From contig JASCQW010000119.1 of NCBI GenBank assembly GCA_030264375.1, positions 8,544,137 through 8,608,136 of the forward strand: a stretch of DNA of 64,000 nt, read 5' to 3'. This document shows, in pieces, positions 25,331-64,000 of the stretch. This DNA is from Carcharhinus longimanus. Its lineage: Eukaryota. Under the pieces are notes generated by a model, which made no database searches, was not told where the DNA came from, and worked only from the letters and a program-made list of their open reading frames with translations. The stretch's first letter is position 1; each line of letters starts with the position of its first letter. The position numbers were made by a program, and so were the translations under genes.

Positions 25331-25349
25331 GGTTTTATCATTGATATCA

Positions 25350-28115: not shown

Positions 28116-28159
28116 AAATCACTATGACGATGATGATCATGATGATGATGACGATGATT

Positions 28160-39102: not shown

Positions 39103-39138
39103 GTATGTTTGTGTGTACGTGTGTGTGTGCGTGTGTGA

Positions 39139-39171
<33 letters not shown>

Positions 39172-39205
39172 CGTGTGTATCTGTTTGTATTTTGTGTATG
39201 TGTTT
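39103..39205. repeat. Imperfect (GT)n microsatellite
   Basis: Directly visible. Confidence 0.95.
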
Positions 39206-42077: not shown

Positions 42078-42212
42078 TTATCTTGAGGCTGTGCCCTCTT
42101 ATCCTGCTGTCCTTTCTGAGCGGGAAAAATCTCTCTACCTCTACCCTATCCATCCCTTTCATTATCTTATATGTTTCGATAAGATCCCCCCTCATCCTTC
42201 TAAAATTTACTA
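42078..42212 (-). mobile_element. Young CR1 fragment abutting a gap
   Basis: FRRMRGDLIETYKIMKGMDRVEVERFFPLRKDSRIRGHSLKI. Confidence 0.95.
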
Positions 42213-44328
42213 GGTACATCTTCTGCTCCGCAAAACAAACATATCAAATAGTGGCGCAGTTATTCTCGGAATGACCAACGCTTTTCGACGAGCTCAGGTG
42301 TAGACAAGCTTTTCCACTTTTTTTTTATTAACGTTGTCCATGATTCAAGGCAAGTGACAACCACCTCTAATGATATTATACGCTGCCCATTGTTTAACTT
42401 GTGAAAGAATATCTTGAAATCAATTTGTGCGAATTTGCATAATTAACACAAAGATTGGGAGCGATGTCACTATCAGCGAACTGGAATGTAAAGGATGAAT
42501 AGTTTGTCTCATCTTTCATTAATCATAACGATGCCCAACCGTGCGATTGATTCCTGGAGGACATTTTTACCTGAAGTGATTGCAAACTTTGTTTTATGAT
42601 CACGAAATTGTAAATATTTATTCAGCGGAAACATAGCGCCATGATGCACGTTATGGATAAAAATTCCGCAGAGTATTTGTTATAGCTGCCACATTCCGAG
42701 GATTATGCCATGAATTCATAGATTTACAGTAGACAATACATCATATAAATTGGACAAGTCTCCTGATCATTGCATGCGGCCAATTCAAGACAGGCAGTGG
42801 TTGTGTTTATATTTTTTTTTCTAAAAAGAAGAATCCTGGGAAAATATATTCCTCGGGTAGACCTATAAGTGTTAGTGACAACCTTTTACAGGATTAAGAG
42901 GAGGTGCAATGCATATCATTATTTCTGAGCATGCTGGTGTACTGCAGCATTACTTTTTGGACATTCAATTGCATATTGTAGATGTAGCATTTAAAACAAT
43001 GTGCCACAAAACATACCAACAACCTTTTCATTTTGTTGTAATATCCTTTGGCAAATTCCATTGTCTTTAACTATTTTGCATGTATGTACTTATTTCAGTT
43101 CCATCCTGAATGCATTCATGAAACAATTGGACTATTGTTCAGATCGAAACAATCTGACAATTCTGCCGTTCTTTTTTTTTTGGTTTGAACAAACGTGACG
43201 AAAAATAATTTGAAGGTTTATGCGATAAGTAAGCTGTCAGGGAGATAAAACTGTGTTGATTTATTGTTTTTTAAATTATTTTTTATATAACATTCTACTC
43301 ATTGTTGAAGAAAATATTAGGCCTGAAGGACTGTACATGGACGTGAATACCTGAAAAAGTTTCCATATGATTATCATGTTACTGGCACTTATTGGGTAAT
43401 CGAAGTTGGCCTCAAGTTTTGTCAACTGCCAATATACTGTGCAGGACCACAGGCACTAACAATAAATCAAGCAATCAGAACGTACCATATTGTTTGTGGA
43501 CACATACTATGAATGAAAAGATAACAATAACGGACCATCGCACAAATCTCATTCCATTTTATCCGCATTAATTTCCACTGTTTTTTTTTGGTGGGGTACT
43601 TTTGAACCAACTTAAATTTGGCTTTAAAAATCATCTTGTTTCATTTATTAGAATTGCCAACATTGAAAAAAATGTGCACGATAGAAGTGATTAATAATAT
43701 TGGCTGGAAAGATAACTGAATCACATTTAAATTTTACAGTCTACACAACGAAATGGAACGTTAGCCTTTGAATCTGTAAGGACTAAGAATGCGTCGAATG
43801 CACCATGAACACTACCCTCTTTGCAAAATGCACAACATAGCAAATATTCAAATGATCGCTGCACATTTGGTGATGTCGCATTAAAAATGATAAATATGCA
43901 AGAAATTTCTGCAGATCGTCAATGCGCACATTATGTTAAAAAGACGGTAACAACATAAATTTCAGTGTGGAAACAATGCCCCATTCTGTGTCATAAGGAT
44001 TCTGTGGTGCAGTTGCTTGAGGCAAACAAGATTTAAATTTGCGAATAGCGATTATAAATTTTGTTGGTGAACCAAACTTCTTAACGTGATGTTATGAAGT
44101 ACCTGAATACATTCAATACACTGAAAGCTCTGCCGCCTGAAAATGTTCTCTGAAATGTAATGGTGACTAATGCAATTGATTTGGCCGCGCCCAGTCACGC
44201 TGTTGAAGTACATATAACACTCAGTCTTTGGGATAGCGATGTTGAAAATGAGTTAGAAATTGATGATGATAGAAAAAAAAATGCAAATTACATGTCATTG
44301 ATTCACGCAAAGAACAGTCTATTATCAG

Positions 44329-44397
44329 CGTGTGATGAACATTTTCATCAACAAATTTTAATGGCGCTCAGTTGTTTTTTGTTGTTGCCGGGGCAAG
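44329..44397 (+). CDS. Candidate signal-peptide exon of an unrecognised micro-exon gene
   Basis: Acceptor TCTATTATCAG| and donor CAAG|GTATGT (phase 1). ATG 44361 gives MALSCFLLLPGQ. An upstream ATG at 44335 is one base out of frame across an A run and would give MNIFINKILMALSCFLLLPGQ. Confidence 0.4.
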
Positions 44398-44452
44398 GTA
44401 TGTGTTGCAGAGTTGCATCTGAGAAGTACGATATTGAAGATTCAGATGAACA

Positions 44453-44877
44453 CAATTTTCACAACTGATTCAGCTTTAGTCGCTTAATGTATGTTGTCAT
44501 TATTGATAAATGCATTAGTTCCACACGATAAATAAGTTGGCTCTGACTGCAGGATAGAAACTGTCAATTCACTGGAGAGTAACTCACATAAAGTGTTCCA
44601 AAAGGTTGCCAAATAACTGCATGTCCCATTCAAAAGCACCAAAACATTTTCTATAAGTATTTGCCCGAGTTCCACTACAACATCAGTCAGGACTATCTAG
44701 CGCACAGACAACAATACATTTGTTTTGATAGTATGTTATGCATTTCACTAGACATTTCACTCACTTACACATAGTCACAATTTTTAAATTGCGTCCGCCG
44801 GGCCAGTATGAATGCTTCTATTACAGATGACGTTGACGACAGCCAACATGAAGTGTGCATGTTACCGTTTAAAACAT
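44453..44877 (+). repeat. Local direct duplication, copy 1 (copy 2 at about 45616-46008)
   Basis: Shared ATTCAGCTTTAGTCGC, CTGCAGGATAGAAACTGTCAATTC, CCAAAACATTTTCTATAAGTATTTG and TTACAGATG. Confidence 0.95.
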
Positions 44878-45082
44878 GAATTATCCTTTTTTTTCATAAA
44901 TCAAGCAAGAACAGTAAGCTTTTTGGAGTAAAGAACTGTTAACACGAAGACTCCTCGGACGTTTCAATTTCAGATGTTTCAATCTACATACACCACAAGA
45001 AATGCTCATCAGTTGAGGTCGTTGTGTCCAGAAAAATTCGGTTGCCTTATCAATGACCTTCTTTCCATCGTAAAACAGAAAT

Positions 45083-45412
45083 GGGGTGGCACGGTAGCAA
45101 AATGGTTAACAAAGCTGCTTCACAGCTCCAGCGATTCCCGGCTTGGGTCACTGCTTGTGTGGAGTTTGCACATTCTCCTGGTGTCTGCATGGGTTTCCTG
45201 CGGGTGCTCCGGTTTCCTCCCACAGTCCAAAGATGTGCGGGTTAGGTTGATTGGCCACGCTAACATTGTCCTTAGTGTCCCGAGATGCGTAGGTTAGAGG
45301 GATAACTGGGTAAATATGTAAGGATATGGGAATAGGGCCAGGGTGGGATTGTGGTCGGTGCAGACTCGATGCCAAATGGCCTCTTTCTGTACTGTAGGGA
45401 TTCTAGATTCTG
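45083..45412 (+). mobile_element. Full-length V-SINE (HE1-like)
   Basis: GTGTGGAGTTTGCACATTCTCCTGGTGTCTGCATGGGTTTCCTGCGGGTGCTCCGGTTTCCTCCCACAGTCCAAAGATGTGC; tail GATTCTAGATTCT. Confidence 0.95.
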
Positions 45413-45615
45413 GGCTTGCATATCAATAAATGGGCAATTTGCAGCATAGGTCTAAGTTCCATGTATAATTCAACAGTGCTTGTCCATATGTAACAAATCC
45501 TCGATAACATTCAGTCTCACTTGGAAATAAGCATGCACATCTCAATTCATGAAAAAATAAATCAATTGCCATCTCCCACAAATTAATCTTTAAAAGTTAA
45601 CACTGTCATTGGATG

Positions 45616-46008
45616 CAATTTCCACAACTCATTCAGCTTTAGTCGCCGAATGTATGTTGTCGTTTAAGATAAATAAGTTGGCTCTTACTGCAGGATAGAA
45701 ACTGTCAATTCTGCGGAGAGTGACTCAAATAAACGATTCCAAAAGATTGTCAAACAACTGCATATCCCATTCAAAAGGACCAAAACATTTTCTATAAGTA
45801 TTTGTCCGAGTTCCACAACAAGAACACTCAGGAATATGTACCGCACAAACAGCGATACATTTGGCTTGATTGTGTCTTATGCATTTCACGAGACATTTCA
45901 CTCACTTTCACATTGTCACATTTTTTAAACTGCATCCGACGGGACAATGTGAATGGTTCTTTTACAGATGGAGCATATTATATGTGTGTATATTTTCGTT
46001 CAAAGCAT
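45616..46008 (+). repeat. Local direct duplication, copy 2
   Basis: See copy 1. Lacks about 22 bp between two GATAAAT microhomologies. Confidence 0.95.
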
Positions 46009-46009
46009 T

Positions 46010-46290
46010 CGGGTTTATGCGGCTGGGCCGAAATTTCTGAGGTCATTTACGAATCAAGTAGTTTCCTCTGGACCCGGTGTTAGACTTCTGGCAGCTCATG
46101 TGAAGATAGTAGAACGCCTTCCTTAAAGGGCATTTGTGATTCAAATTCGCTTTCACAATTGATAGTGGGTTTATTGTAATCTTAAATGTTAAATGCCAGA
46201 TGCATTTTAAATTAATATTCTATGCTTGGATTCGAAGCCATGTCTGTTGGTCTCTGGGTTATTAGTGAAGACGTAATACCGCTCTGAAAC
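46010..46290 (-). mobile_element. SacSINE1/DeuSINE-like SINE, decayed
   Basis: Similar to 28160-28540 (CCTTCCTTAAAGGGCATT, GGATTCGAA, GGTCTCTGGGTTATTAGT). Confidence 0.55.
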
Positions 46291-46699
46291 TTCAAACTTT
46301 CAAGAAGCCATCACGTCACATTTTTCTCAAAGAATGTGAACAGAGTTAACACATTTTGTCCTTCGCAATTTTTGCACAAACACAAGCAAAAATGAAGGCG
46401 ATCAATGGTTTACCATTGTTCTCTAACTCAAAGGACCAAACATGCACTCAGCTATCTCGTTTAATGGCTTGCAGGTCAACCAATAAAGTCTGGATTGTTG
46501 ATTTACCTTTTTTTTCAAGAAAGGAGATGATTTGAAATTAACATTATAAATCTCGCTTTGTTCGATGTTCAGAAGAATGCAAAGTGAATAATTTTGCATG
46601 TGGTGGGAAACTAAAATGCTAACCTGCAAAATTCAGTTCTCCACAAGGTAACCATTGGGAATCTCCTGAAACATTGTTTTTTTTTCCAGCGTAGGAGAG

Positions 46700-46960
46700 A
46701 AGTGGAAGATAAAGGCAATGAGTCGCTTAATCTAACTCATGCTCTCAGCTGTTGGATCAATTAGTATATTGGCATTTTGCTTAAGAAGAGGGGAAAAATA
46801 GCCAAGATGGGAGCAACTTCCGGTCGATAGTGGACAAATGAAAAAAAAACAGTTTGTATGAAATTCAACATGTTTTGATTGAATTTTTGATTCACCTGCT
46901 TTATTTAGAATGGTACGTGCATTAAGGGAGAGTGCCCTTTGTGATTTGACGTTGAAGTGT
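46700..46960 (-). mobile_element. CR1 endonuclease N-terminal fragment
   Basis: ALSLNARTILNKAGE (cf. LYLNARSIxNKxxEL). Confidence 0.55.
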
Positions 46961-47084
46961 GCGACAATCTTCTGTTTCAATACTTTATTTTTTTTCTCTC
47001 TCTTTCTGTGAAATTAGACTCTACCTCATCATCCGTAATGTGTTGTTTTCTTTTTAATTATTCTTAGATTCCTTGTATTAAGGG

Positions 47085-48200
47085 TTTCATAGAATCATAA
47101 AAATTGGGGAAAAATGCTTTGGACGATCAGTCTGCAGTGACACGCAAGAACCAATTTCCCAGTTACCACCACTTGGTCCATAGTTTTGAATGCTCTTAAG
47201 AATCATGTGTTCATCCAGCAGCATTTGAAAAGATATGAGACAACCTGTCTCTACCATTCGACAAACAGGTGCATTCCAGACAATCAAAAACTATTTGGCA
47301 AAAAAAAAATGTTGCTCACATCCCACATCGTCCTAAACCTTCTGCAACTAAACGTTATCAAACGTCCCTTCAAAATCTATTTGGCAACTCGGCGGAACGT
47401 CTCCTCCCATGCATTTTTCCATGTCTTTCATAATCTTGTAGATCTCGATCATGTCATAACTCTTCTCGATCAGAAATAACAGAAGTCTATCAAAAATGCT
47501 TTTGGTAATTTAGTTTTTCCATGTCGGCAGCAACCTGGTAAAACTCCATTGCGCACCTTCCAATGAATTCACATCATTCCGCTTATACGGTGACCAAGCC
47601 CAAGTTTGATTCGATTGTAATCTTGTCAATCCAAACTCAACAATGTCAACTATAACATATATTTGCATGACAAATAGCAGGCGAGCCAGCTCAGGTTCCT
47701 GTAGCGTGCCATTCGACAGTGGCTCCCAATCACGATCACTTTTTTTTTGCTATCACTACTTACCTTCTACAACTCAGAAAAAAAAAATTGAACTCAATTT
47801 ATCAATGTGACCGACTTTGCATGCGTATCTATCTTCTTTATCAGTTCCCCATGTAGTACCTTGTGTGCAGCTCACTGAAGAGACAGTCCCAGCGTGGATC
47901 ATATGCAAAATCTGCCGAGGTACAGATCTCATGTTCTCCAATATTGATCTGACAAGAAACAGGAATCCAAAATTTGCGCTTCAACATCTGAGCGAATTAT
48001 CGATCCCACGAATTGATTTTCCATATATCATGTTTATCCTTGCGAAAATTCCCGCTCCATGTTCTTCATTTCCAGCCCATCTCCTTCCAAGTGCTGTGAA
48101 CAAATTAATTTCTCGTTCTTCTACCTATGTCGGACGAAGTTTCGTGCATCAGTACAACTTGAATTCCGCCCCAGGCCTGATCAAACACCTTGAATCCTGA
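47085..48200 (-). mobile_element. CR1 LINE, decayed
   Basis: Tail CATAGAATCATA reversed; ORF 47087-47287 VWNAPVCRMVETG...LDEHM...YGPSGGNW. Confidence 0.75.
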
Positions 48201-48306
48201 CAGCAGGCAGGCAACAGAAGCATTAACATTTAATACTTAACTTTGGCGGGGTGGGGGTGGTGGGAGGGGGACGTATGCAGCAGACCCTACTCTCCGCTTT
48301 TAGCAT

Positions 48307-48430
48307 AAAAAAACCCACAACACATTCCAAACAGGTTTATTTAAGTGGACTTTAACCTGGTCTTGTGGGGTTTATTTCTGATTCATCCCAGTCCAACGCC
48401 GGCATCTCCACATCATGACTACTTTTGACA
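48307..48430. mobile_element. Collapsed palindromic Penelope-derived mini-insertion with a perfect 13-bp TSD
   Basis: CCGCTTTTAGCAT at 48294-48306 and 48431-48443. The interior has GGACTTTAACCTGG...CCCAGTCCAACGCCGGCATCTCCACATCAT, the reverse complement of about 184-260. Confidence 0.85.
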
Positions 48431-48449
48431 CCGCTTTTAGCATTTCAGT

Positions 48450-49200
48450 CCCTTTCTTCCCTCACTTGAATGATGTCTGCAGGACAGTGTCAAATTGTTT
48501 ACTTCATCCGCACAACTCCCTTTCTAATGGGGAATACAGTTGCACAGCTGTAACCTGACGACACTTGAAATCTCGCATCAAAACATATCTTTGCTCTTTG
48601 GACACGCATCACTTTTCAGCAGAGCAGCTTGTCAACACACCGGTGAATTTATCCCCAAATTAAATTATTCTCCATGTGGATACCTTTGGAGGCATTGTTA
48701 AATGCTGCAAATTCCCCGAGATTCAATCATGTCATTGCAGAAATACAGTCTGGAATGACAAAGTTCCGACTCCTTATGCACAGCCAAAAATGGGGAATTC
48801 GTTTGAAGTCATAATACAGCCGTATTCTCCATGCAGATCAACGGCAGTAACCTCAGAATGTTTGGAAATAAACAGTAGCCAAACATGCAAACGTTTGTCT
48901 AATGAATCTCATTACCAGTCCCCCTGGAAACACCATTTTTGTTAATGAACGCTGAACGAACCATAAGCCCCTTTCACGCAGTTGTAAGTCTTTTTTTTTC
49001 GCATAGCCTGTCCTTTGCTAAAAAAAAACTTCCATGCAACTCACTCACCCCTGCACCCCAACCACAATATGTCCAGACGTACAGTCCTTGATGCATTTCT
49101 GTGTTGCAGCATTAGTTTCCCATCAATGACACTTAACTGAATTTCCTCCGGCCGCAGATATTCCATGCAGAAATATTTCCCTTTTTAACAGAATGGCGTC
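48450..49200 (-). mobile_element. Retroviral pro-RT relic D, very decayed
   Basis: Minus-strand colinear motifs VIDGKLM...ASRTV, IVVGCRG, LAKDRLC (cf. LGRDLL), TNSPFLAVHK (cf. NTPxxPVxK) and GINSPVC*QAAL (cf. GFxNSPxxFxxAL). Confidence 0.45.
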
Positions 49201-49244
49201 CAAATCATTCACATTCTCTGGAAGCTCTTTCTCTGCCGGCACTT

Positions 49245-49452
49245 TCATTTCAGGTTAAAATCCAACAGATTTATTTGGTAGCACGGGGTTCCGGAGCGGT
49301 GCTCTTTCATGAGATGAGAGGCGCTCGTCTGATGAAGGAGCAGCGCTCCGAAAGTTCGTGCTACCAAATAAACGTGTTCGTCTTTAACCTGCTGTTGTGA
49401 GAATACTTGTTCTGCCTTATCCCAGTCCAAAGGACAGCAACTCCACATCGCA
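49245..49452. mobile_element. Short palindromic Penelope-derived element (head-to-head pLTRs)
   Basis: 49250-49315 is the reverse complement of about 49325-49392. Confidence 0.85.
49325..49361 (+). ncRNA. Minimal hammerhead ribozyme motif (stem I decayed)
   Basis: CTGATGA-A-GGAGC-AGC-GCTCC-GAAA-GT-TC-GTG, with a perfect 5-bp stem II. Confidence 0.55.
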
Positions 49453-50277
49453 GCAGTTTTATTATTCACGGGTGTCATGTAATTCAGTTGATCAGCTTCC
49501 TTATGTTCGATAAGCAACTCAGCTTTTTTCAACAAGTTGTTTTCCATTTAAATCCCGTGAATGGAATGCACGCTGAACACATTGAAAGCACTCAGGGCGA
49601 AACTCTGAAAAACAGCTTTTCCCATCTTTGCATTTTCTTAAATTGCAACGTGAAGGTTGAAATAGATGGATACATATTTACTATTTTTGGTGTGATTCAA
49701 ATCATGCCGCTTTTAATAGAGTCGTGTGTTTAAAATAAGATGAAATTTTCATTGCTTGAAAGGCAGTCAAGCCGAACGGACGTCTGGAACATGGTCTTGA
49801 ATGTAGGTGGCTGTGTGTGTGTGCGGTAAGGGGAGCGTGCAGCGTGAATTCTACAATTCTCAACACTTACAATTCTATAGCAGCATTCCTCCAGGTGACT
49901 AGATCATTATCTATGGCTAACTGAACAATGTAACACAGCCAATAGAAACGCAAGATGCACGTTTGAGTGATCTTTTTCAGTAAGTCAACGTTTATGAACT
50001 TCGCCTCAATCCCGCTCAAGATTTTTGCCTCAGGAAACCTTTTTTTTTTTGCGTAACCGCCTTTTACAAATTCCAGTTGTAGGCATGTACCCATTTTTTA
50101 TTTGTAATTCTGATATGAACTATAATAATAATAATAAAAATCCTTCCTTCAAACAAACTCCCAGGTACTTTGATAATTCACATCGTACGTATATTTCTTA
50201 TACAATAGCAGCACAAATACACACATTGAAAATAAGCAGCCATGCACGAATGAGAGTCGTGCCGACCAGGAAAGATG

Positions 50278-50605
50278 CATAGAATGATAGAACACTACAG
50301 TGCAGAAAGAAGTTTTTCGGCCCACCGAGTCTGCATCCCATCCAGGCTCTACCCCGTATCCTTACATATTATACCCAGTAATCCCTCTAACCTACATATC
50401 TCTGGAGACTAAGGGACAATTTCTTAGCATGGCCAATCAACATAACCCGCACATTTTTGGACTGTGAGAGTATCCGAAGGAAACCCACGCAGACACGAGG
50501 AGAATGTGCAAACTCCACACAGACAGTGACCCGAGCCGGGAATCGGACCCAGGAGCCTGGAGCTCTGAAAAAGCAGCGCTAACCACTGTGCTACCGTGCT
50601 GCCCA
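50278..50605 (-). mobile_element. Full-length V-SINE (HE1-like)
   Basis: Reverse complement of the 45083-45412 family. Confidence 0.95.
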
Positions 50606-50685
50606 CATCTCACAATAAGGTGTGTGGCCTATCCGACACCAGGGAATCTCCACACCAGGAACCAACCCTGTTTCACTCAATAGAT

Positions 50686-50845
50686 TTTTTTTTATTCGTT
50701 GGACATGTTGTCGCTGGTTGGCCAGAATATACTTCTTATCCGTAAATGACCACGGGCAATTGAAACTCCGCCCAATTGTTGTGGTTCTAGAGCCAGAGAA
50801 AGGCAAAATCGAGAAAGGGCGGAAAAAAAAATCTTTACCAAATCA
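50686..50845 (-). mobile_element. Deu-like SINE 3' fragment
   Basis: TTTTATTCGTTGGACATG...GTCGCTGGTTGGCCAG, as at 28163-28200. Confidence 0.5.
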
Positions 50846-50854
50846 ATATTTTAC

Positions 50855-51160
50855 TTAGAATCCTCCAGTGCAGTAGGCCGCCATTCGGCCCCATCGCGTC
50901 TGCACCAACTACGATCCCACACAGACCATATCCCCATAAAGAGAGCTAGATCCCCGAATCTGATGGGCAATTTAGCATGGCCAATCCACCTCACACGTAC
51001 ATTTTGAAGTATGGATGGAAACCGGAACACCCAGAGCAAACCCGGGCAGACACGGGGAGAACATGCAAACAAAGACAGTCAACCAAGCCGGGAATTGAAC
51101 CCAGTTCCCTCGCGTTTTGAGGCAACAATGCTAACCGCTGTATCACAGTACTGCCCCCGT
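50855..51160 (-). mobile_element. V-SINE (HE1-like)
   Basis: GGAAACCGGAACACCCAGAGCAAACCC...CAGACACGGGGAGAACATGCAAAC. Confidence 0.9.
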
Positions 51161-53074
51161 GAAACATGTGCTAAAATGTATACTGCCATAGCCAGATGTG
51201 TGTTTTTTTTAACTCAAATTTCACCATCTCCTTTGACAGTATTCGAACAGGAGTCACTATAAATTTAGTTGTGTTTCGGGATTATTAATGCAGCGTGGAT
51301 ACCACAATGTCANNNNNNNNNNGCAAGCAAAAAGGCAGTAACGATTGTTTGTGTTTTTTTTTATTTGCACCTGCATAATAAACGGATGCTTAATGCTCAC
51401 ATCAAGGTTATTTTACCTTTGTTTTACTGTCCTGGCAGCAGCATCAATATTGCTATACTATCAGGACATCTTAGAATTTTTTTTTCAAAAGACGGGAATA
51501 GTACTGTTGTTTACATGAGATTTACAGTGTGCCATTCGAAATTCTTTAAAACATGGTGAACATCGTTTTTGTTCATATTACTAAAATGAGTAAGATGTCA
51601 AAATATATTTCTTTGCAATCACGCACTTCAGTAACATAACTTACAACTCACTCTCTCGGCATGTTTGCATTGGAAACGAATCTAGAAATGGCCTTTAATA
51701 ATTTAACGTTGTGTCTGCAACTATTGCTCATTGTCACCAATGTATCTGCGAGACAGCTCAAAATTATCTCATATGTGTAACAAAACTCATTCCTCGACAG
51801 CAACATCCACATCCCAGGAATTAAGAGAGAATACATGTTTGCAGGTTGGAAGATGCATTCCTGTAGAGGATCTGAAACCAACATTATGCTTTCTTATCGG
51901 GATACTGTCCAGCTGAGGTTGCACATCAATTACTGTTCACAGTAGCAATCTGTGAACAGAATTCCATTTTGTCAAGAATTAAGGCGGTCGAATGAAATAT
52001 AAACTGACAGTTTTCGGGGGCTGAATATCTGACATTAATTGGGCTGTTTCAATTTAGTGTATGTGAAGAGAAGGAAAATAAAATAAACTTGGAGGTATGG
52101 TGCAGTATCACTCGACTGCATGTCTATGAAGTATAATCAAATTAATAATTGGATGTGGAAAAGCCACGATTGCGACGATCGGCCAGAATATCCTCATCGC
52201 CAATGTTCTGGAGACTTTGTTTTTCAGAAAACCAATAGCTCAATTGATTGTATTAATCCCCCAATGATTTTGAGTTTGCGAGTAGATTATAATATATGTC
52301 AGTGACGCATTCATGTGACGTGATTGTATGAAATATTTCATCCCAAACTGATTGGCCACTTTGCTCTTCACAAATAATGGCGAGGCATTGTGTACGTGCA
52401 TTCCACTGGACAGTAAGAACATTTCATTACCGCACCAAGTGCCCCAACATTTTTTTTTGACGGCAACAATAGCTTAAGAAGTATATTTCCGTTAATGATC
52501 GGAGTGATCGTAGTCTGATCGAACAACATTCACACTTCGTCACTGCATGCTTCCTTCTTTTTTTTCTGACCAAATAATGGTTTTGGCAAGGTCATCCTCC
52601 TCATATTAAATCTTCAGTGTGAAGATATTTTAGTATGTCTAGGCTGAATTTAATCTGTCTTGTAACAATTCATAAGCTTCAAAGCATGCACTCCATTGAG
52701 GACACTGTTAAATTTGAAGAATACAATTCAGTTGTCCGTTATGTTGAATCTAATTTTTCGAATTGAAAACCGACAATGTGGTTAAATTTACTTACTCGCA
52801 CTGTACATTCTAAATTACTTTCAACGTGTATTGTGCACTTCACTGGCAAATAAATGTAAGAAAAAGACATAAATACACATTGAGCGAGAATACAGTGTAC
52901 AGATAATCCCCTATGCCAAAGTCAATGCGGGCACGAAGCATGGGACAGTGAGAGTAAAAGGCTCGTGCAAAGCATGCATGTGGCGACATGTTCTGATCAT
53001 TCAAGAGGATGATAATTCTCGGGAAGGGAAAAAAAAACAACTTCACTGTATCTGTTTTCTTTGATTGCGCTATC

Positions 53075-53350
53075 TGATGAAGTGCTTGGTAATGCTGCGC
53101 CACGGATCCAGCAAGCTGGGTTCAACTCCCGATTGGCGTCTCTGACTTTATGGAGTTTGCACATCTTTCCTTGTTCCGGCGGTTTCCTCCAGGTGGTCCT
53201 GTTTCTCCTCACAGTCCGTAAGACGTGTTATTTGGTGATTTTGCCAGGGCGCATTTTCCCTCAGTGTATCCGGGCAGATGCATGAGTGTGGCAGTTCCAG
53301 GATTGTCACAGGAGTGTAGTGTAAGTTGGCGTTTTCACAATTAAATACAT
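53075..53350 (+). mobile_element. V-SINE variant with a different tail
   Basis: GGGTTCAACTCC B-box, V-domain TGGAGTTTGCACATC..., tail TTCCCTCAGTGTATCCG...GAGTGTGGC. Confidence 0.75.
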
Positions 53351-53429
53351 TTTACCGTTAAATATTTAAATAATTTATTGTCTTCTTGTTACAACACGGG
53401 GAATCTAAGTATTTAATCTCCATGTTCAG

Positions 53430-53456
53430 ATGGAAAGATGGGGAGTACAGATTCAG
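53430..53456 (+). CDS. Candidate 27-nt phase-1 micro-exon, (D)GKMGSTDS
   Basis: TTTAATCTCCATGTTCAG|...CAG|GTAACA. Confidence 0.5.
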
Positions 53457-54353
53457 GTAACACGCAAGTTTATGTTGATGCATTTCTGCGTATGATATGA
53501 CGTTTGTTGAGAAAACAACCATCCTATGTGCTGAAGTTACCTAAAATAAAATCAGAACAAAGCTTTGCTGTTACTTTTCTTGTGGCGGTCTTGTTTGTTT
53601 CAGTTCTGTGAATTCGTCCAACTTTGCTACCTCTCTGCCTCTGTCTGTGTCTGTGTGTGTGTGTGTCTCTCTCTCCAGTTTCTAACCTACCCTGCAACCC
53701 GCCAATTAAAAAAAAATGTACATGCCAATAATATCATAGAGTTTTTAGCAGACTTTTTTGACAATGCATATTCGACAATTCATTGCACAATGTTGTGAAA
53801 TATTAGATATCCTGTTTCCTGTGATATTGATTTTCATTTCTCTCACTGTCTCAGTGCAGTTCATGATTTTGTATAATTCTGTCGAAAACGAGTTTCTCAT
53901 CTGGCGGTGCCAGANNNNNNNNNNGTTTGCAGTGCATTCGCGTATGTTAAAGAAATAATTCAAATTATTTGATTGTTGTTTGCACTCTGTGTGTCCATTT
54001 GCTGATTGTGGCTCGCCTTTCATCACCTTTTTTATGTTTGCGAGGTTTTATTTTAATCTGCCCAGAACGTATTTTAATGTATTGATGGCAGTAACAATTT
54101 CATCTCTATAAGCAGACGAAGGCAATGTTATCTTATGCGAAATTATGTATCATAATCATTACCGGCTATGTAATTGGCTTTGATAACAAATCGTACACGC
54201 ACCATTCCAGGAAAGCTAAATTTTCAACCTGCTGGGTGGTCATAGCCGTACTTCGGGTCCAATGCACCGTTCAGGTGAGAACATTACAATTAATTACTAT
54301 AATGGCCTTTGAATATTTAACTCTCAGAACAGCTAAATGCTAATGCCAGAACG

Positions 54354-54397
<44 letters not shown>
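54354..54397. repeat. (GT)n microsatellite
   Basis: Directly visible. Confidence 0.97.
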
Positions 54398-54399
<2 letters not shown>

Positions 54400-54949
54400 A
54401 ACCAGCAACTGTTCCATTGTTTGAAACAGCACCTTTCTGTCCGTAACTCAATAACTAAATCTAATAAGTTGGCATTGTTGAATGCATGTGACCAGTTCTG
54501 TTGAGGAAACAGAGCTCATACTAATTGCTCTGAGTTAACTTTCATTGCATGTTACTAATAGCGTTCTATTTCATTCCAATGAAGGTACTTGCTTTCCTAA
54601 CCAGAAGCACAGGCGACAGAAAAGTGCACAAGTGAGGTGCAGAATCCAGAATGGATTCCCACGGGTGAAAACAAAAACTGGCCATTTCCACATTATCCAA
54701 TGCACACGGCAATCGTTTGTCTGATTTTTCCAGCAGTAGATTTACTCTGAATATTTGTCAGAACACTTCGGATATATATTTCAAAGTAAACCTATAGTCA
54801 CTGGCTGCTGGCTTGTGTATTTGTGATCATCGTACAATTATAAAGCGGTGATATCGCCTACGCGTGTTGTCACTGAAAGTTATACGTGTACCAAATGAAT
54901 GCATCAATATGAATTGACATCTAGTTTCATTCAATAAAGCCACTCTTAG

Positions 54950-56000
54950 TTCTACACTAACTATAACGTGGATAAGGATGCGAGCAACGTGGACAGACTT
55001 TCACAATAATAGAATATGCAATGGTAACAATTTAAACCAGTTACAAATCACAATCTATCTACGATAATCTCGAAATGGTAATGTTTCTACAAAGCCTGAG
55101 CCGCTGCAACTGCTGCTGCAATTCAAGAGAAACACAATTTGTTCCTCGCACAGAGAGGATGCGACCATCAAGCCAAAAGGACGTTAGGCCTTTCACATAA
55201 ATGAATCATGAGATTTTGGAAATGTTAAGACAGTGCATTATGGATTCTGAAGACATGCATCACAAAGACTGGCAGGTTGTTGAAAAGACTACGCACTTTC
55301 TGTTGTGAACAAGGTTCACAGAAATATCCTTAGAGACTTATCTCCTGCTCACATAAAGAAAATCACATTCGGAAGTAAATGCAATTAAATCCATGACTCG
55401 GAAAACTGACAACTAAGTCACAATGTGCTAACATATACCTTGAATTCAGGGTTATTTGTCCAGATGCTACTGAAATGTGTCAATACAGTCGGCGAAGCGT
55501 TTTTTTTTATTTCGGACATGACACACATGTCATTATTTACAGGAGTAAAACAGCTTCAATCACCGATACAGTGAAGTGGTCTATCCGTGCCATTGAGGCA
55601 ACTTAATCTCTGCAATAAAAAAAAACAAACTGTGGATTGCGCTGAACTGGAGAAGTTTGCTAAAATAATAATAAAAAACAAAACTAATGTTCTTCATTGT
55701 TGGAAACTGGAACCTCTGCTCAATAATGAAGCACATGTATTCGGAACAATTTTCAGCCAGAAGGATAGAGTGGATCATTCATCTTGGCCTCATCCATAAG
55801 TTGTCATCATTTCAGAAAGCAGCTTTCAGACAATTCGATGAAATCCATATGTAGTAAAGTAAAAAATGATGGCCGTATTCATTTCAAAACCTATGNNNNN
55901 NNNNNAAACCTATGGACTTTGACAATATTCCGAAATTTGTACTGAAGATTCCGACTCCAGAACATGACACCCAAAAACCATGATCGTCGTGTGCATACAA
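54950..56000 (+). mobile_element. CR1-group LINE (partner-type tail of the Deu-like SINE), internal ORF2 fragment
   Basis: EAHVFGTIFSQKDRVDHSSWP; ...CTATGGACTTTGACAATATTCCG...GTACTGAAGA (G.DNIP..VLK). Confidence 0.65.
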
Positions 56001-56929
56001 AACACTTCAATATACCCAGCAACACAGAAAAGAGAGGAATATCGAGCTATGACAAGTGGGCATGAAAAAAAAAACTCGCTTGTCTCTCTTTACATCCGAC
56101 TCTAAGGATAAAGATGTTTAATTCCAAAAACGTCCTTCAATGTTCGAGATTGCGCCGAAAATAACTACCAACAAAGCACACTACCCGAATTTTACAGCAT
56201 GGTTCCATATCATTGCTTGTACTGAGTTTTCAGGCGCTCTTTTTTTTACAGTTCGAAAGTTTGTGGCCTCCACAACCTTCATATGCAAAATTCTCCAGAT
56301 TCCAACTGCAACCTCAATGAAACAAAAGAAATCTCAAATCACAGGGGAAACTCCTGCTCCTTGGGTTCAAGCTATGGTCCTAATGATTGCAACTTAGGCA
56401 AGGGGAGAAGCAGCTTCCTATTCATTCTGTCCCTTTTCATCATTATGCGATACACCGCACAATCCTGTGCACTTGTCAGGTCTAGAGAAAATAAAACATT
56501 CTTGCCAATCCAGTCAGATTTGGAATGTCATATGGTCTAAAGTAAAAATTCGGGTAAGCCTGCAAGAGTGATCGTATCCTTCCCATGATAAGATGAACAG
56601 ATCTAAATCTTAGTACTCCAACTGAGGCTGAAGCCATGTTCAGTACAGCTCCTGCATTATTTTCTTGTACTCTGTGGCACAAACTATGAAATTAGGTGTT
56701 CCATTAGCCATCTCACATGCCATGTGCATCTGAACTTTCACTTTTGATATCCGTAGTAAGTACCTCAAATCGATATACTTTTAACAAAAGTTATGGTGAC
56801 GAATAAGCCATCAACAGCACAATCTTGGGCACTTTTTTCAGACATAAAATGATAATGAGCCCTACTTTTTTGTTTCATTTTCATTTTCCATTTCCATTTG
56901 CACTGTGAGAGTGCTTTGTTGGATCAAAA

Positions 56930-57840
56930 CGCTTCCGGAGATGACAGGCGTGTTGTAAGATAGCGAGTGTTCCATATTTATCGCAATGATAGTAACATAA
57001 TGAATGTATATGTCAAAGTTAGAACAGTGAGTGAATTTAAGGGGAAAACTCAGGTAGTTGTGTTATCTAGTGTGTGATTCCCTCAATCTTCCAGGTGGTC
57101 ATGACAGTGTGTTTGAGAGTTGCTGCCGAAAGAACGTCGGCGAGTTTCTGACGAGTATGCTACAAGTCCTAAACACAATTTACTGTTTGACAGTGATAGT
57201 GTGGTCATCGACTTTTGCCCTCTGTACAATGTTGGTGAAAATATGATCAAAAGAACCTAGTGCCAGTTGTGAACTGAAAGTGCCTGCCCTTGAGATCATG
57301 ACAGCGCATGACCAAAAATCCCATCAGGGAACAAGGCAGCAGCTTTTGAATCCTGTGATGAATAAAATCACTTGCTGACACCCGAAACGACTTCCACTAT
57401 GAACAAGACGCAAACAGGCAATGAAATTATACCATCTCCAATTGCCTGGACGAGTGCATCGTGAATTCGACTCACGGAGCTTGAAACCAAAATGAATGAA
57501 ACAGCTCACTGAATTGGGACCCCTTTCATGAACACTCGGCTACATCACCGCCTCTTCCAAGAAAACCACTATGACCATACAGAAGGTTAGGAGAAACACA
57601 TACCTGGCAACATAACCACATGAAAGTGCTCCTTTCAATTCACTCACGATTCAGATTCAAACATATACAATTGCTATCTCACTGTCACTGCGACAGGTAT
57701 AAATACCTCCTCCCGAGCAGAACGTCTGACACCTCCAGAACTTCTGTAATTCAAGAAAACTTCTATCTTGTAAATTGTAACTAGAGACGGGAAATACATG
57801 CTGAGAAACGACGATTAGATCCCACCCATGAATGAAATCA
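56930..57840. mobile_element. Same LINE family 3' end (+, 57250-57840) with an inverted copy (-, about 56930-57230)
   Basis: TCTCCAATTGCCTGGACGAGTGCA (SPxAWxSA) and tail CCCATGAATGAA. 57040-57130 is complementary to about 57540-57630. Confidence 0.55.
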
Positions 57841-58088
57841 TTTCATTTTCCTGTTATACATGTGACCAAAACTTGGCAATTGTATGTCAGTCATCAGTTA
57901 ACAGAACAATTATACCAACGTTGCCTGTCTGTACAATAACGTTTCCTTCATTGATTACTTAAATTGTTGATGATTGCACGGCAGAGTGGAATTCATGGAG
58001 TAGGCCATGGCGCCACAGGCCAAAGTATGCAACAGTTCCATTGCACAATGTTTCAAATTGTGTTTGATTTATATTGTTTTCCTTTTAG

Positions 58089-58115
58089 ATTTCAACAACC
58101 TTTTTGAAGGAATGG
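58089..58115 (+). CDS. Candidate 27-nt phase-1 micro-exon, (D)FNNLFEGM
   Basis: TATTGTTTTCCTTTTAG|...TGG|GTAAGA. Confidence 0.55.
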
Positions 58116-59204
58116 GTAAGAAAGTACATTCTTGATGGTGCTTAACTGGGATTTTCGCAGAGTTCCAGATTGAATGAATATATATGTTGGCGAGTGAAAA
58201 TCAAAAACCGTTAACATGGGCACGTCTTTGAAAAGCTGCAGGTGCGCATCATGAACAGAAATGTGCAGCGCAAGTTGTTGCACATAAAATGTAATGGTCC
58301 ATTGAAATGTACAAAGTTGCGATGTGGACTGTTGCCAAAAGACTGCACGTTGTGTTTCTTTCGATTGATACAGGGAAATACGTAACATGTTGCAGTTTTT
58401 TTTTTCAACGTTCCAACGCATAATTACTTGAGATCACTCTGACAGCAATTTTACAGTTGCAAATAAAATCCCACGTGGCGTACTTGTTCTTCTTCCAGAA
58501 CAACCATCACCNNNNNNNNNNNNNNNNNNNNNNNNNNNNNNNNNNNNNNNNNNNNNNNNNNNNNNNNNNNNNNNNNNNNNNNNNNNTTTAAATTAAATCA
58601 TGCAAAATATCAATGCTATTAATCATTGTCAATAATTGTTAATCTTGTGGTTTTCTTGATTCCGCCTGCGTGCCTGGTTCATATTCTGCTAATATCACGA
58701 TCCTTACTGTTAGTTGTAATGGTGGTGACGTCTTGTGGTCATGCTGTTGCATGACAACATTGGCCCTTTGCAAACATTTACTATGAAGGCATTTAATATG
58801 AAGATGCAGGTATCAAAGTTATTAATGTCTAGTAAAAATTACAGCTGGTTATCATTGTCAGAGTGGCTGGAATAAGATGATCAAATCTTACCATGTGGCA
58901 CAGCTTAAAGATCGAGGCATCAACACCAAATAGGGCAGATAACGAGAACATAACCGAATATAGTGCATATTATCGATACCCAGGATAGAAAGAAGCCGAG
59001 CTTGGTAGAAAATCCAATGCTAACGTTTTACCACCACATGCAAAGGTTGTGGAAATACTGATTATTTTCAAATAGACAAAAACACAAGGGACAAATGATG
59101 ACAAATGTAGTTCGGTCCCCATTTGGATGCGTTCAGGAAGAATAACGAAGTGTTCCTGCAATTAATGAACGTCTCAACCTTGCATTTGTCTTATTCATCA
59201 GCAT

Positions 59205-59500
59205 CGATATCATCATTCTCTTCGGCTGGATATTCTTCTTCTTGACATCCGTATTGTTATGTCCTTTTTCTTGTTGTTCTTGTTCTTTTTGCTCTTGTTT
59301 TTGCTCTTTTTCAACTTGTTTACGTTGTTGTTGTTGTTGTTGTTGTTGTTCTTCTTCTTCTTCTTCTTCTTCTTCTTCTTCTTCTTCTTCTTCTCCATCT
59401 TCCTCCTCTTCCTCTTTCCCCTCATCTTTCTCTTCCAACTCGTTGTCGTCCTACTCGTCCTTCTTCTCCTCCTCCTTCTCCTTCTATTGTCATTATTCAT
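59205..59500. repeat. Compound (GTT)n(CTT)n microsatellite in a pyrimidine-rich low-complexity tract
   Basis: Directly visible; explains the poly-E/Q/K/S/F ORFs. Confidence 0.95.
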
Positions 59501-59768
59501 ATTTCCTTTTGCAATCCCCTTCATATCATGAGTTTTTATATTTCTGCATTGATATCAGGATGTTACTGAATTTTCTGATTCAACGCTGCACGGTCTAAAC
59601 TAAAATTCAGCATTAATTGACGAATGTGAGAGTGTGGTCCTGCGTTAGATTTGCAGTTTTCTTTAAGTACGTGAATGCAAACGTTATGCATGCATGTCTG
59701 GTTGAGCGTCTGACAAACCATTCATCGATTTTGTTTCTAGTCAGAATTTTTTTTTAATGTGTTTACAG

Positions 59769-59795
59769 CAAAGAGCATGCTGGACAAAGATAAGG
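59769..59795 (+). CDS. Candidate 27-nt phase-1 micro-exon, (A)KSMLDKDK
   Basis: TTTTTTTAATGTGTTTACAG|...AGG|GTAATG. Confidence 0.55.
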
Positions 59796-60958
59796 GTAAT
59801 GCAACATATCAGGAAGAACTGTATGTATTCTGGGCAACCGCGTTGAAATGAACATTATCAACATCATGCATATTTCTGACGTGGATATACTCTAAATTTG
59901 TGACGGATGCTTCCCTTGAAAGATAGAGATTGTGGAATCACATTAGGGCATTGAAATGTTAATGTAATGTCAATCGAGAGGTAAAATCTGTTGAGCACAT
60001 GAAAGCGGAGAAACACAAAATTTTGAAGGCCATGCAGTCTGTCAGATTTCACGGTGCAACAGTGAAGGGTAGGAGTTGGAACATCGTAAATGTATTCATT
60101 ATGTTGTTTTCACTGAGAATTGTGGCCTCATCATGGAACATGACTCTCAAATGGACCATAACATGGCTAGAAGAATAAAAGCTATTGAGCTAACAAGATA
60201 TTTCGGATACAAATGTGCAATGCAGAAGCAACATGTCATTGAAATTTGACATAATGTAAATACATGTGATTCCAAGGTGATGTCACTCAACATTGTGTTT
60301 TGATCGCATACGTTCAACAGTGTTTTCTAACCCCGTAATTAAAACCCTGAAATCATACATGTTTTTATTCGACCGACATTTCCAAAACAGAATTGGAATA
60401 TTAAAGAAAATGAATCCCTGAGACATGATTTTACCACGTCAGTGGATTAAAGTATTGACAACACAGAAGTGACGTTCAGCAGAAAAAGAAACAGTCAATA
60501 TAAACAGTCAATAAACAAACAGTCAAAATACTCAACGGCGCCCCCACTGATTATCTGACCAGCTAACAGAAAAGTGGACTGAAACGTAACTTTAAATTAC
60601 AGGAAAACATATGAGACCCACGAATTGTAGATGATGTAATTCATCATGTTTGTCTTTCCAATATTCCCAGCAAGATTACACAATCAATCCAGTGACAATA
60701 TTTTTTTGAAATAGGTTGAGGATATTTTTTTTTTCTCGCTGTGGGAATTTGAGAGCGCATGAGTGCGTTTTGAGTCCCCATTAATTTTGCTCAATATATG
60801 TGAATGTCAAACATAACCATATGTGTTGCATTCGAACGTCGGTTGCAGTATCACTGAAATGCCACAGTGCAACACTTACTTTTGCTTCGATTAACTGAAT
60901 AAAAAAAAACAACTAATTTCGCATTTCATTGTGAATGTTTTCTTATTTTATACTGCAG

Positions 60959-60994
60959 AAATACGCAAATTGAAAGAAATACTGAAAGATGCTG
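60959..60994 (+). CDS. Candidate 36-nt phase-1 micro-exon, (E)IRKLKEILKDA
   Basis: Branch-like CTAAT at about 60913; TTTTCTTATTTTATACTGCAG|...CTG|GTGAGA. The peptide is an amphipathic helix. Confidence 0.55.
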
Positions 60995-61926
60995 GTGAGA
61001 GCAATCATCAAGTGAATGATTCTGCTTTCAAATGTTCACTTAATTCAGAGTATGTAAGGTAAATAGTACTAAGAAAAAAATGCTTATTCATTTTATGGGA
61101 CAAAGTAAGTGTTGACCGTATCCATCAGCAATTGTTAATTTCTTATAGAAACACTGTGCACGTCTTTACATGTTGCCAGGTATGCCGGAATATGATGGCG
61201 TCCGAATCGAACAACATTTATTTGCTCAACACTAAAGGCACATCAGAAATAATCATGCGTGCGACGCGTGTGTGCATTGCAAAATCATCCCATATAATGA
61301 CATGTTCCAGCATGCTTCACTTAAGTAGTGATAATAGATTTTTCGACATGAATTAGTATTCCAGTGCCAATTCAGACTTCCCAAAGAAACTTTGTGGACT
61401 ATTACTAAACGCTGGATAATACGATAGAAATGGACACATCTGAAACTGTTACTCTTACCATCAAGCAGCAAAAAAAAACAGAAGTATTAAAGTGTTGCAG
61501 ATAAGTCAATAAGTTATAGATTAATTTCAAGCTAAATATATGTGACAAGGCGAAACGAGTTGAAAAAAAAAATCTGAATTGACAACGAGATATCAGCTTG
61601 CACATGTGATTTTTTTCGGCACTCAGAGAGATCAATTCAGGTAAAGAGCAGGAATTCACATTCACTTTTGCTGCACACCATTTTTACAGGAAATAATTAC
61701 GTAATAAACTAATGCCATGTGTTTGCAGTTAAATGAGAAATTTTAAGGCTGATCTTGAAGAGATATTTTGCAAGACAATTGTATCTAAATGGGTACCGCA
61801 CAAGTTTGTTTTTTGTCGAATGGATTAATTATCAGAATTTTGGCATACATGTTGGCATGAGGTCAGAATAGAAAAAAAGAACCTGAAGTGCTCAGTCGAT
61901 CTTATCAAACATTTTCTTTTTTTCAG

Positions 61927-61940
61927 TTCAACGAGAATAG
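61927..61940 (+). CDS. Candidate terminal coding exon, (V)QRE-stop
   Basis: Strong acceptor TTTTCTTTTTTTCAG|; TAG at 61938-61940 in phase 1; AATAAA at 62401-62406. Confidence 0.35.
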
Positions 61941-62519
61941 GCAGTTGGGTTCTTCCTTTAGTTTGGAAATGCAGTCGACCAAATCGAACAAAAGTGGTAT
62001 ACGTATAGGGAGACGTTTAGAGAAACACAAACCTGGATAACAATAGCTGCAAGAACCCTAAATTCGGATATGTGCTCCTGACACAAAATGTCGTCTCAAT
62101 TCCCGCTTCACGAATTCTGTTTGATCTTTTGACATTTCGCAGCATTTTCTCTTCCTGTTTCAGATTCCACCACAAATACTATTTTGCTTTATTTCCTCCC
62201 ACATTAGCTTAGCATGTTACAGAGAAGCAAAATGAACAGTAGAAAGACAACAACAAACAGCTGCAATGTGGTAAGAATAGAAATGAGTCATCAAAGGAAG
62301 CAGATTGGGACACTGCTGCTCCCATTTCGTTTTCTTCTGTGCATACCTAATGCATTGCATAAATTGCTCAGAAGGATTTTTAAATAAGAGTAAACTCATA
62401 AATAAAATACAACGGCAGGCATTGAAATCCACTGATGGGGCACTGCTATCAAACTTTATTATTAACAGAAACTTAACTCATTAAATCAAAATGACATGAG
62501 TTGTTTTCAGGTGCACTCC

Positions 62520-63220
62520 AGCCCCGTGGCACACATGAGTGTGGAAGGCCAGTAGCAAAACAAATGCAAAAGACATATTCCCATTCAAGGCTGCCTTGAA
62601 AAACGGACAGACAATTCGGCTGTTAGACTCCATCGATCTGGCTTTTTACTGGACTTGTTAATGCTATACTTGGTGAAGCAGAGAACCACGCCAAAGAGAA
62701 GGACTGCCACACCATCCTACTCATCGTCAGCACCTGATGTCAACTGATTTGTGTTTTCCACAGTAGATGAGCAGTAGCTTGATTTCATCGGCAATGATGC
62801 AAAGCAAAGAGAAACATTATATGCTTATGACCATTCAAGTTTTACCACCCTCATGTAAACATATTTTCTGTGAATGGTCACGGTCACGCATTTCATGCTC
62901 ACAGTTATTGCACGCCATCCAGTCGGAAGCGTCCTGGTTCCTTTGACATAGCCGTATTATTGCTCAAGTGGCAATACAAGCACTCAGAGTAACAATTTGG
63001 AAACGACGATTCAAACAAGCACCACAGATGATGATGTCAAATGCAAGCCTTCACTTAATGTCTCATGATGTTCTTGAAGTTATCCACTGAACTTGCTATC
63101 GATTTATTTCCTCGATGATATCAGAGAAGACATTTGATATCCTTAGCTGGCCTGCCCTACATGAGAATTAACAATATTTCAGTGGAATTTGAACAAACCA
63201 CCAGTGATGCCCCACAAAAT
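62520..63220 (+). mobile_element. Very decayed LINE endonuclease-region fragment
   Basis: Weak nucleotide resemblance to the family at 54950-57840 (CCATCCTACTCATC...TCCACAGTAGATGAGCAGTAG). Confidence 0.35.
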
Positions 63221-63386
63221 GCACAGGAAACACCCTGGTAGAACTACAGTTCGATTTCAGAGCTTAGAATGACTCGTTTTTTTTCGAATATTTTATAATT
63301 AAGGAAAGGTACCCCAGGTTTGCATTTTCTGCAAGCGTCCCACTGTCCCAACCAAAACTCGCTCCTTCCCTGCAGACGCCGGAGCT

Positions 63387-63387
<1 letters not shown>

Positions 63388-63431
<44 letters not shown>
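63388..63431. repeat. (CA)n microsatellite
   Basis: Directly visible. Confidence 0.97.
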
Positions 63432-64000
63432 AAACACGAACGACTCGGTGCTACATCATCACTCTGCCATGTTGAACGGCATTTGGAGGAAACACATGTC
63501 TGGCAATGGCGCAAAATGTTCTATAACGGGGCGGGGGATTGGGGGGCGGGGGGTGGTGGGGTTCGTGCTCTGCTGTCAAGAGTGACGGTGGAGAATCATT
63601 GCTGATTGAAATGAAGAAGTGAAAATGCCACAAATGTTAGAGTCGTTGTGCAGTATACATTAGGTGAAGTAGCAAAGGAAAACCATAATCTAACTCATGC
63701 AAGTAGGCATGGGCTACGAAAACCATTAAGCATCCATTTTCCAGACTGACCAGCAGGCACTAGTTTTGATCTGATATTCTGTACTTATATTGAGAGAAAA
63801 AAAACCCCTCCATAGCATCATTTCCTATGAACGTGGTGCTACATTGGATATATTTTGACCAGTTTTATGAACTCACCCTTTTACAACAATAAGGCATTCG
63901 CTGCCACGAGCTGAATTAGAATTGTAATTAATCGTAACATTAACGTTTATGGCACTGTATGTGCCCCTCTCGAGATATCCACTGGAATGTAATGAGGTAA

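Follow-up and report, generated by a model that had tools for sequence, protein, structure and literature searches.

Several described gene systems share parts of their design with the locus reported here, a candidate gene of very short phase-1 coding exons (micro-exons) in a 64,000-nt stretch of the Carcharhinus longimanus assembly (2.68 Gb). This stretch, the window, is contig JASCQW010000119.1 (hereafter C119), positions 8544137-8608136. In chicken BG genes, according to the relevant passages of PMC4046983, 13-36 exons of 21 or 24 nt follow those for IgV and the transmembrane (TM) segment, and a 3' untranslated region (UTR) exon comes last. Butyrophilins (BTN) have few heptads (same passages of PMC4046983), their heptad number varies, and they are present in cartilaginous fish (PMC12841164, in the part dealing with them). 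The vespryns ohanin and thaicobrin of the snake venom gland are secreted, with a signal peptide and a B30.2-like domain in precursors of 190 aa (PMC5384570, vespryn passages). TRIM proteins of the PRY-SPRY type (TRIM39/69, A33, xnf7-like) place a coiled coil before B30.2. Collectins, ficolins and CD209-type necks combine a stalk with a terminal recognition head. Enterophilins, likened here by description and not by exon structure or sequence, are presumably intracellular mammalian proteins with a long heptad run and B30.2 without Ig. A link of enterophilin to SNX1 is described in part of PMC13749957.

The window contains the gene's 5' end, because its exons are the first after an exon-empty stretch downstream of the preceding B30.2 exon. 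The proposed reading, to which a probability of about 0.6 is assigned, is that one gene of ~430 kb joins ~100 phase-1 micro-exons into a predicted coiled-coil stalk of ~1,000 residues followed by a B30.2 head, the product likely being a secreted, disulfide-linked rod. Like chicken BG, it has a long coiled coil encoded in many tiny exons, a tandem cluster, and growth and shrinkage of exon number (PMC4046983, BG passages); unlike BG, its exons measure 27 and 36 nt, number ~100 and end in B30.2, and neither Ig nor TM was found. The BG combination of IgV, TM and 21-nt exons without B30.2 is therefore not the one present here. Heptad repeats followed by B30.2 are shared with butyrophilins, from which the gene differs in that no IgV/IgC/TM part was found, in a separate B30.2 clade (100/100) and in giving no Pfam PRY match. 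No Ig ectodomain was detected by tblastn (1.26 Mb) or with a profile of 10 BTN N-terminal halves (best E 0.11 in 1.86 Mb, 187 kb of which are gaps), and the single hydrophobic candidate for a TM exon before the heptads spans ~12 residues and stands at chance level. The coiled coil before B30.2, with a fold TM-score of about 0.7, resembles TRIM, whereas the coil is far longer and built from micro-exons, the clade is separate and no RING/B-box was found (a profile of 10 TRIM N-termini gave no match at E <= 1 in the same 1.86 Mb). Vespryns, compared by description and not by sequence, provide a precedent for an extracellular B30.2 (PMC5384570, same passages), but theirs is a short signal/propeptide/B30.2 precursor without stalk, unlike the ~99 stalk exons of the present gene. 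The likeness to collectins, ficolins and CD209 necks is one of layout, with no homology: the present stalk is alpha-helical and the head is B30.2. No description of the family was found among listings of open text in PMC and bioRxiv; the supplements of shark genome or proteome papers could list such genes.

Exon array and gene model

The features of the gene and its surroundings are as follows; unprefixed coordinates are those of the window, and values above 64000 are window-relative.

1..44328, no strand: repeat-rich stretch without family exons, between the present gene and its upstream tandem paralog (no 27/36-nt sense candidate in 59 kb)
44329..44397, + strand: candidate signal exon, unproven; ATG at 44361, 12 codons, phase-1 donor (5.3 bits), weak acceptor
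53430..53456, + strand: first micro-exon, 27 nt, phase 1, GKMGSTDS; paralogous exon at C119:6396234 (0/300 shuffles)
54605..54631, + strand: possible extra 27-nt phase-1 exon, AQATEKCT, uncertain; composite score 13.0, without paralog support (211/300)
58089..58115, + strand: micro-exon, 27 nt, phase 1, FNNLFEGM; a 27-nt AG..GT segment fills the same slot of the upstream paralog (C119:8182170), the peptide likeness not being significant
59769..59795, + strand: micro-exon, 27 nt, phase 1, KSMLDKDK; paralog counterpart C119:8186026
60959..60994, + strand: micro-exon, 36 nt, phase 1, IRKLKEILKDA; paralog counterpart C119:8187598, family look-alikes at 0/300 shuffles
60995..64000, + strand: intron leaving the window, with the array beyond
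61927..61940, + strand: proposed terminal exon VQRE*, likely intron sequence and at most a minor alternative end; chance level
C119:8611276 (67140), + strand: next exon, 27 nt, EKLRTCGD, placed by paralog exon order
up to C119:9013438, + strand: about 93 further micro-exons of the scored array
C119:9018199-9018719, + strand: intact terminal B30.2/SPRY exon, identified by PDB sequence and fold matches

The first-pass annotation, made from the letters of the window alone, had proposed four micro-exons there, and these are confirmed with their AG/GT ends, their lengths (27, 27, 27 and 36 nt), their final G and their location outside local repeats. Phase 1 is the sole frame open in all four, since phase 0 meets a stop in the 36-mer and phase 2 in the exon at 58089, as well as in that at 59769. 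What was right in the earlier interpretation is a hidden elasmobranch coding gene of phase-1 micro-exons, invisible to open reading frame (ORF) finders and possibly secreted. None of 38 window ORFs scored above the Pfam cut-off. Splice scores were taken from approximate matrices set up from recall, the opposite strand served as control throughout, and ~1.9 Mb of chromosome sequence around the window was examined. In 864 kb around the window, the + strand holds 83 AG..GT candidates of 27 nt and 72 of 36 nt, versus 11 on average at each of the 47 remaining lengths, while the - strand holds 12 of each. The micro-exons are therefore real beyond chance, because the two length peaks occur on the + strand only. 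Look-alike exons elsewhere in the cluster are significant for three of the four (53430, 59769 and 60959, with 0, 1 and 0 of 300 shuffles reaching the score); that of 58089 is not (33/300), yet it occupies the expected slot. The 27-nt candidate at 54605-54631 had been overlooked. A further acceptor, previously placed at 58498, is present, its first base being corrected to 58499; it runs into an unfilled gap, no counterpart exon was detected in two paralogous modules, and it is omitted from the gene model. A DNA search of the shark's own genome with 58000-58511 returned the self match only.

The gene model, which spans the sequence between 53430 and the 9.018-Mb B30.2 exon, was built with an exon score trained on other arrays. 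The array extends ~410 kb past the window before the B30.2 exon is reached. Within the gene, 108 sense candidates stand against 5 antisense, and 99 exons are left once overlaps are removed (55 of 27 nt, 34 of 36 nt and 10 others; ~977 residues over 430 kb). Between the window and the B30.2 exon, 71 of the 74 sense candidates of 27 or 36 nt are open in phase 1, compared with 34 and 36 in the other frames, and the antisense strand offers 10 candidates. Two junction stops occur, each at low-scoring candidates (8.2 and 9.6), and just one 21-nt pre-terminal exon is present in the array. The predicted product contains 18% Lys, 17% Glu and 13% Leu, and its hydrophobic residues peak at a period of 3.5 with a power of 0.64. 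Shuffling of exon order lowers this power to 0.32 +/- 0.06, with 0/300 shuffles reaching the observed value; consequently, the exon order itself preserves the heptad register. Furthermore, 36-nt exons carry Cys at core positions 4 (17/109) and 11 (9/109), and Cys makes up 2.9% of residues versus 1.3% in 66 TRIM coils. The array and the B30.2 exon very probably form one transcription unit.

Paralogs and the chromosome cluster

The upstream tandem paralog has its B30.2 exon starting at C119:8528663, 15.5 kb before the window (Pfam SPRY, E 1.2e-13). Five close relatives of this exon lie on the same chromosome, at 6.328 (-), 9.018 (+), 9.086 (-), 10.681 (+) and 11.288 (+) Mb. All six B30.2 exons are intact and terminal, with a phase-1 acceptor and their own same-strand array on the 5' side, and the strand of each array switches together with that of its B30.2 exon. 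In seven arrays the sense candidates total 316, of which 301 are open in phase 1, versus 42 antisense (25 open), and no + strand candidate is found in the 59 kb and 67 kb downstream of two B30.2 exons. The end of the gene at 6.328 Mb was not reached within 130 kb.

Exon-by-exon alignment of the present gene to the upstream one (169 upstream candidates) scores 329, versus 80 +/- 15 and a maximum of 127 for shuffled order (60 shuffles). The alignment follows the upstream gene from 8.186 to 8.515 Mb and covers both genes almost to their ends; the matched pairs include 59769/8186026, 60959/8187598 and 67140/8189512. Four stretches of DNA likeness between the two genes are likewise collinear.

Several further features of the region were recorded. 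At C119:7.744-8.158 Mb, a + strand array of >400 kb, for which no B30.2 exon was found, holds three 30-nt exons rich in Ser/Thr/Pro (7934325-7937184) and repeated 18-nt exons (7809632-7813529). An array restarts at C119:10.72-10.88 Mb, after the 10.681 B30.2 exon; its exons 10874635 and 10876515 resemble the 58089 and 59769 exons of the window, and the start of a further gene may therefore lie near 10.85 Mb. Near-identical micro-exon blocks recur 15-20 kb apart at C119:10.603-10.637 Mb, a sign of recent internal duplication. A nebulin exon at C119:8464875, 79 kb upstream, was rejected as a synteny marker: it is alone, sits in the upstream paralog between gaps, has near-identical copies on small contigs, and the nebulin gene is on contig C32, so that it probably stems from the nebulin repeat region and was misplaced. 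Contig C81 of the assembly carries a dense group of ordinary B30.2 exons, numbering dozens, at 85.9-102 Mb, likely the TRIM/BTN region.

B30.2 head and relatives in other species

Membership of the B30.2/SPRY superfamily is indicated by Pfam SPRY for the paralog exon, and by PDB sequence and fold for that of the present gene. The head of the present gene has a predicted fold with a predicted local distance difference test (pLDDT) value of 80, its best structural matches being TRIM7, TRIM58, TRIM15, TRIM21 and BTN3A1 (TM-score about 0.7) and its best PDB sequence match BTN3A1 (E 1.3e-17). Residues W42, W45, R83, W96, R106 and W160 are shared by 12-14 of the 14 family members and by <=10% of 240 TRIM/BTN domains. 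This conservation suggests a fixed class of ligand rather than a fast-changing target. Head positions 42-45, 106 and 158 align with stretches of BTN3A1 that presumably line its phosphoantigen pocket. In BTN3A1, His351 and Tyr352 bond the ligand (PMC10533412, in the part on binding).

A profile of the six B30.2 exons gave 11 matching proteins of 93-301 aa at E <= 1e-28 (662 candidates), 8 of them family members (191-256 bits) and the remaining 3 at <=125 bits. The eight come from Scyliorhinus torazame (2), Chiloscyllium punctatum (2), Narcine bancroftii, Hypanus sabinus and two Logan records, and one of these last two falls into a cluster with a RefSeq protein of Leucoraja erinacea. Of the eight, seven are scarcely longer than the last exon, and database names for such fragments are of TRIM type. 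In a midpoint-rooted tree of 30 rows (14 family members and 16 selected TRIM/BTN domains), all 14 domains of the family fall into a single clade (100/100) apart from the TRIM/BTN rows. One paralog is grouped with the sequences of catshark and bamboo shark (100/99), the ray pair standing separate.

The skate RefSeq model XP_055510696.1 (295 aa) shows, by eye, a signal-like start, a stalk and B30.2, with no TM or Ig. Together with Narcine XP_069797409.1 it parses into modules of 9/12 residues (0/500 shuffles each), compared with 5, 5 and 54 of 300 shuffles for control coils. The skate residues preceding B30.2 resemble, again by eye, the last micro-exon of the present gene, and exactly nine residues immediately ahead of B30.2 distinguish two Narcine isoforms. 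The modules and this isoform difference support the joining of micro-exon modules to B30.2; the predicted models presumably rest on transcripts.

Among longer proteins, the matches listed are generic TRIM/BTN or other B30.2 proteins, with <=43% identity over part of the query. A cluster-atlas search with two homologues returned generic SPRY clusters and one lead, at rank 7 (score 0.84), of long SPRY proteins (1579 aa) with the ATG16 Pfam domain on 34% of members; this cluster may hold long members of the present or a parallel family. Proteins of bowfin, mormyrid and bonefish, two of them named TRIM39 or nuclear factor 7, appear to have an N-terminal tail, a hydrophobic stretch, a stalk and B30.2, and are possible type II membrane B30.2 receptors.

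Candidate signal exon

The hydrophobic segment at 44329-44397, previously taken for a signal peptide exon, is plausible by position and the best candidate by hydrophobicity: within the 68 kb that precede the first micro-exon, it is the only one of 22 + strand candidates running from an ATG to a phase-1 donor that lies above the hydrophobicity cut. Its standing relative to the antisense strand is at chance level and its acceptor is weak (-3.8 or -5.6 bits with two approximate matrices); the odds of its being real are put near even. A DNA search of the genome with this region gave the self match only, and nothing convincing was found as a signal exon at other array starts. A 54-nt hydrophobic segment at C119:8167313, considered as the paralog's signal exon, was dropped since it runs into sequence presumed to be the 3' tail of a long interspersed nuclear element (LINE). 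The frame 44154-44468 is open for 104 codons, and about six 100-N gaps lie upstream in the window (five before 44329, plus one 16-N gap), their true size being undefined. Just 3' of the candidate, 44453-44829 and 45616-45970 form a local duplication of ~375 nt at 82% identity. Upstream of it, non-symmetric AG..GT segments at 36362-36407 (46 nt) and 38344-38374 (31 nt) are possible 5' UTR exons.

Proposed product and alternative explanations

According to the proposed mechanism, the ~100 micro-exons, once joined, would encode a parallel coiled coil of ~1,000 residues; as the rise of a coiled coil is 0.15 nm per residue, its length would be ~150 nm. One 27-nt plus one 36-nt exon would encode 21 residues, or three heptads. 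Duplication or skipping of an exon would keep the frame and, in 27+36 pairs, the coil register as well, and gene growth would be explained in this way. The rod would be secreted and disulfide-linked, with its B30.2 heads offered to a ligand; reach and multivalency would come from the stalk, and binding would fall to a putative family-specific face of the head, rich in Trp/Arg.

The product is probably extracellular. Cys at core positions 4 and 11 suggests inter-chain disulfides and hence an extracellular setting, and this reading is favoured by the signal-like start of the skate model without TM or Ig, together with the core Cys and their enrichment. By analogy with BTN, TRIM and BG, innate recognition appears the most likely role, with a structural role in a secretion as the alternative; the prediction of a collectin-like recognition function is tentative, somewhat short of even odds.

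Several observations weigh against the proposed reading. Most known B30.2 domains are cytosolic. Of the antisense candidates, 3/25 pass the same hydrophobicity cut as the signal exon, which places it at chance level; it has just 12 codons, its hydrophobicity is due to a T-rich tract, and its likeness to the skate signal-like start is not significant. In addition, a frame of eight codons (44335-44363) begins at an upstream ATG, 44335, and its stop overlaps the candidate start codon; shifted by one base relative to the hydrophobic stretch, this frame may be an upstream ORF, a mark of decay or a slip of the assembly. The records from skate and Narcine are short predicted models (280-295 aa), neither of them an ortholog of the present gene, and no long family member appeared among proteins of 302-2000 aa (118 matches among 336 candidates; 120 listed of 172 matches, 8000 scored). 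Two further arrays have no detectable B30.2 exon, so arrays may end otherwise. No RNA dataset is listed as containing 61927-62600; the sole sequencing run found for the species is genomic, and its contigs are collinear through the introns, without joints. Finally, gaps make up 41 kb of the 430-kb gene, and the scaffold holds at least one misplaced piece.

The alternative that survives best, although unlikely, is that the same giant gene encodes a cytosolic adaptor of coiled coil and B30.2, enterophilin-like or resembling a RING-less TRIM, without a signal and with the 44329 segment noncoding. The chance level of the signal exon, the lack of a clear homologous one at three other array starts and the intracellular nature of the PDB relatives of the head are consistent with it, whereas the skate signal-like start and the Cys at the coil core argue for secretion.

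Appreciably less probable is a membrane-anchored product of the same gene, either BTN/BG-like, with ectodomain and TM exons hidden in gaps, or a type II protein with a signal anchor and its stalk outside the cell. Heptad tails are indeed encoded by BG and BTN genes, in BG by tiny exons (PMC4046983, same passages), and ray-finned fish proteins with TM, coil and B30.2 exist. The upstream 100-N gaps of undefined size and the 104-codon frame also fit such a product, but the 68 kb ahead of the first micro-exon contain only 1,451 N, the best Ig match in 1.86 Mb has E 0.11, a hydrophobic stretch of ~12 residues is short for a TM segment, and the B30.2 clade is separate from BTN.

The earlier interpretation of the locus as a small secreted protein ending at 61927-61940 fails in both size and kind, and its survival as the main product through intronic polyadenylation is very improbable. 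An acceptor of 6.3 bits, an in-frame stop and the AATAAA at 62401 are indeed present; however, acceptors of equal or greater strength that are soon followed by a phase-1 stop and have AATAAA within 500 nt occur 13 times in sense and 15 times in antisense in the gene, with 0.21 such combinations expected in the intron holding 61927, and the supposed 3' UTR carries a high-copy repeat (~62076-62195). A stop and poly(A) signal directly after the fourth exon, as in a small peptide precursor, is thus at chance level, and the gene continues from 60994 to the 27-nt exon at 67140 and on to B30.2. The next matched exon of the paralog is the counterpart of 67140, and the exons further downstream are intact and keep the register. 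What had been described as a C-terminal amphipathic helix is the start of the long heptad stalk.

An array of several shorter genes, or a decaying locus with few exons used together, is just as improbable, since the short annotated relatives, the two arrays with no B30.2 exon found and the 41 kb of gaps are outweighed by full-length collinearity with the paralog, 71/74 open exons, junction stops confined to low-scoring candidates (8.2, 9.6) and a single 21-nt pre-terminal exon in the whole array.

Biological meaning

The locus belongs to a multi-megabase cluster of large coding genes almost unseen by annotation; under TRIM-type names, the records of related species keep no more than a last exon or a short model. 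The family stretches the micro-exon design of BG and butyrophilins about threefold, with a unit that passes from 7 to 9+12 residues, and it clearly illustrates how coiled-coil register can constrain the duplication of exons. It may also shift B30.2 outside the cell. More speculatively, and rather doubtful as a whole, elasmobranchs would possess a family of secreted rods with Trp/Arg-face B30.2 heads on disulfide-linked coiled-coil stalks of up to ~150 nm, whose length is set through the duplication and skipping of 27/36-nt cassettes, the genes measuring 0.3-0.5 Mb or more, that is, a collectin-like humoral arm derived from an intracellular-sensor domain. The genes offer concrete targets for elasmobranch immunology or secretion biology.

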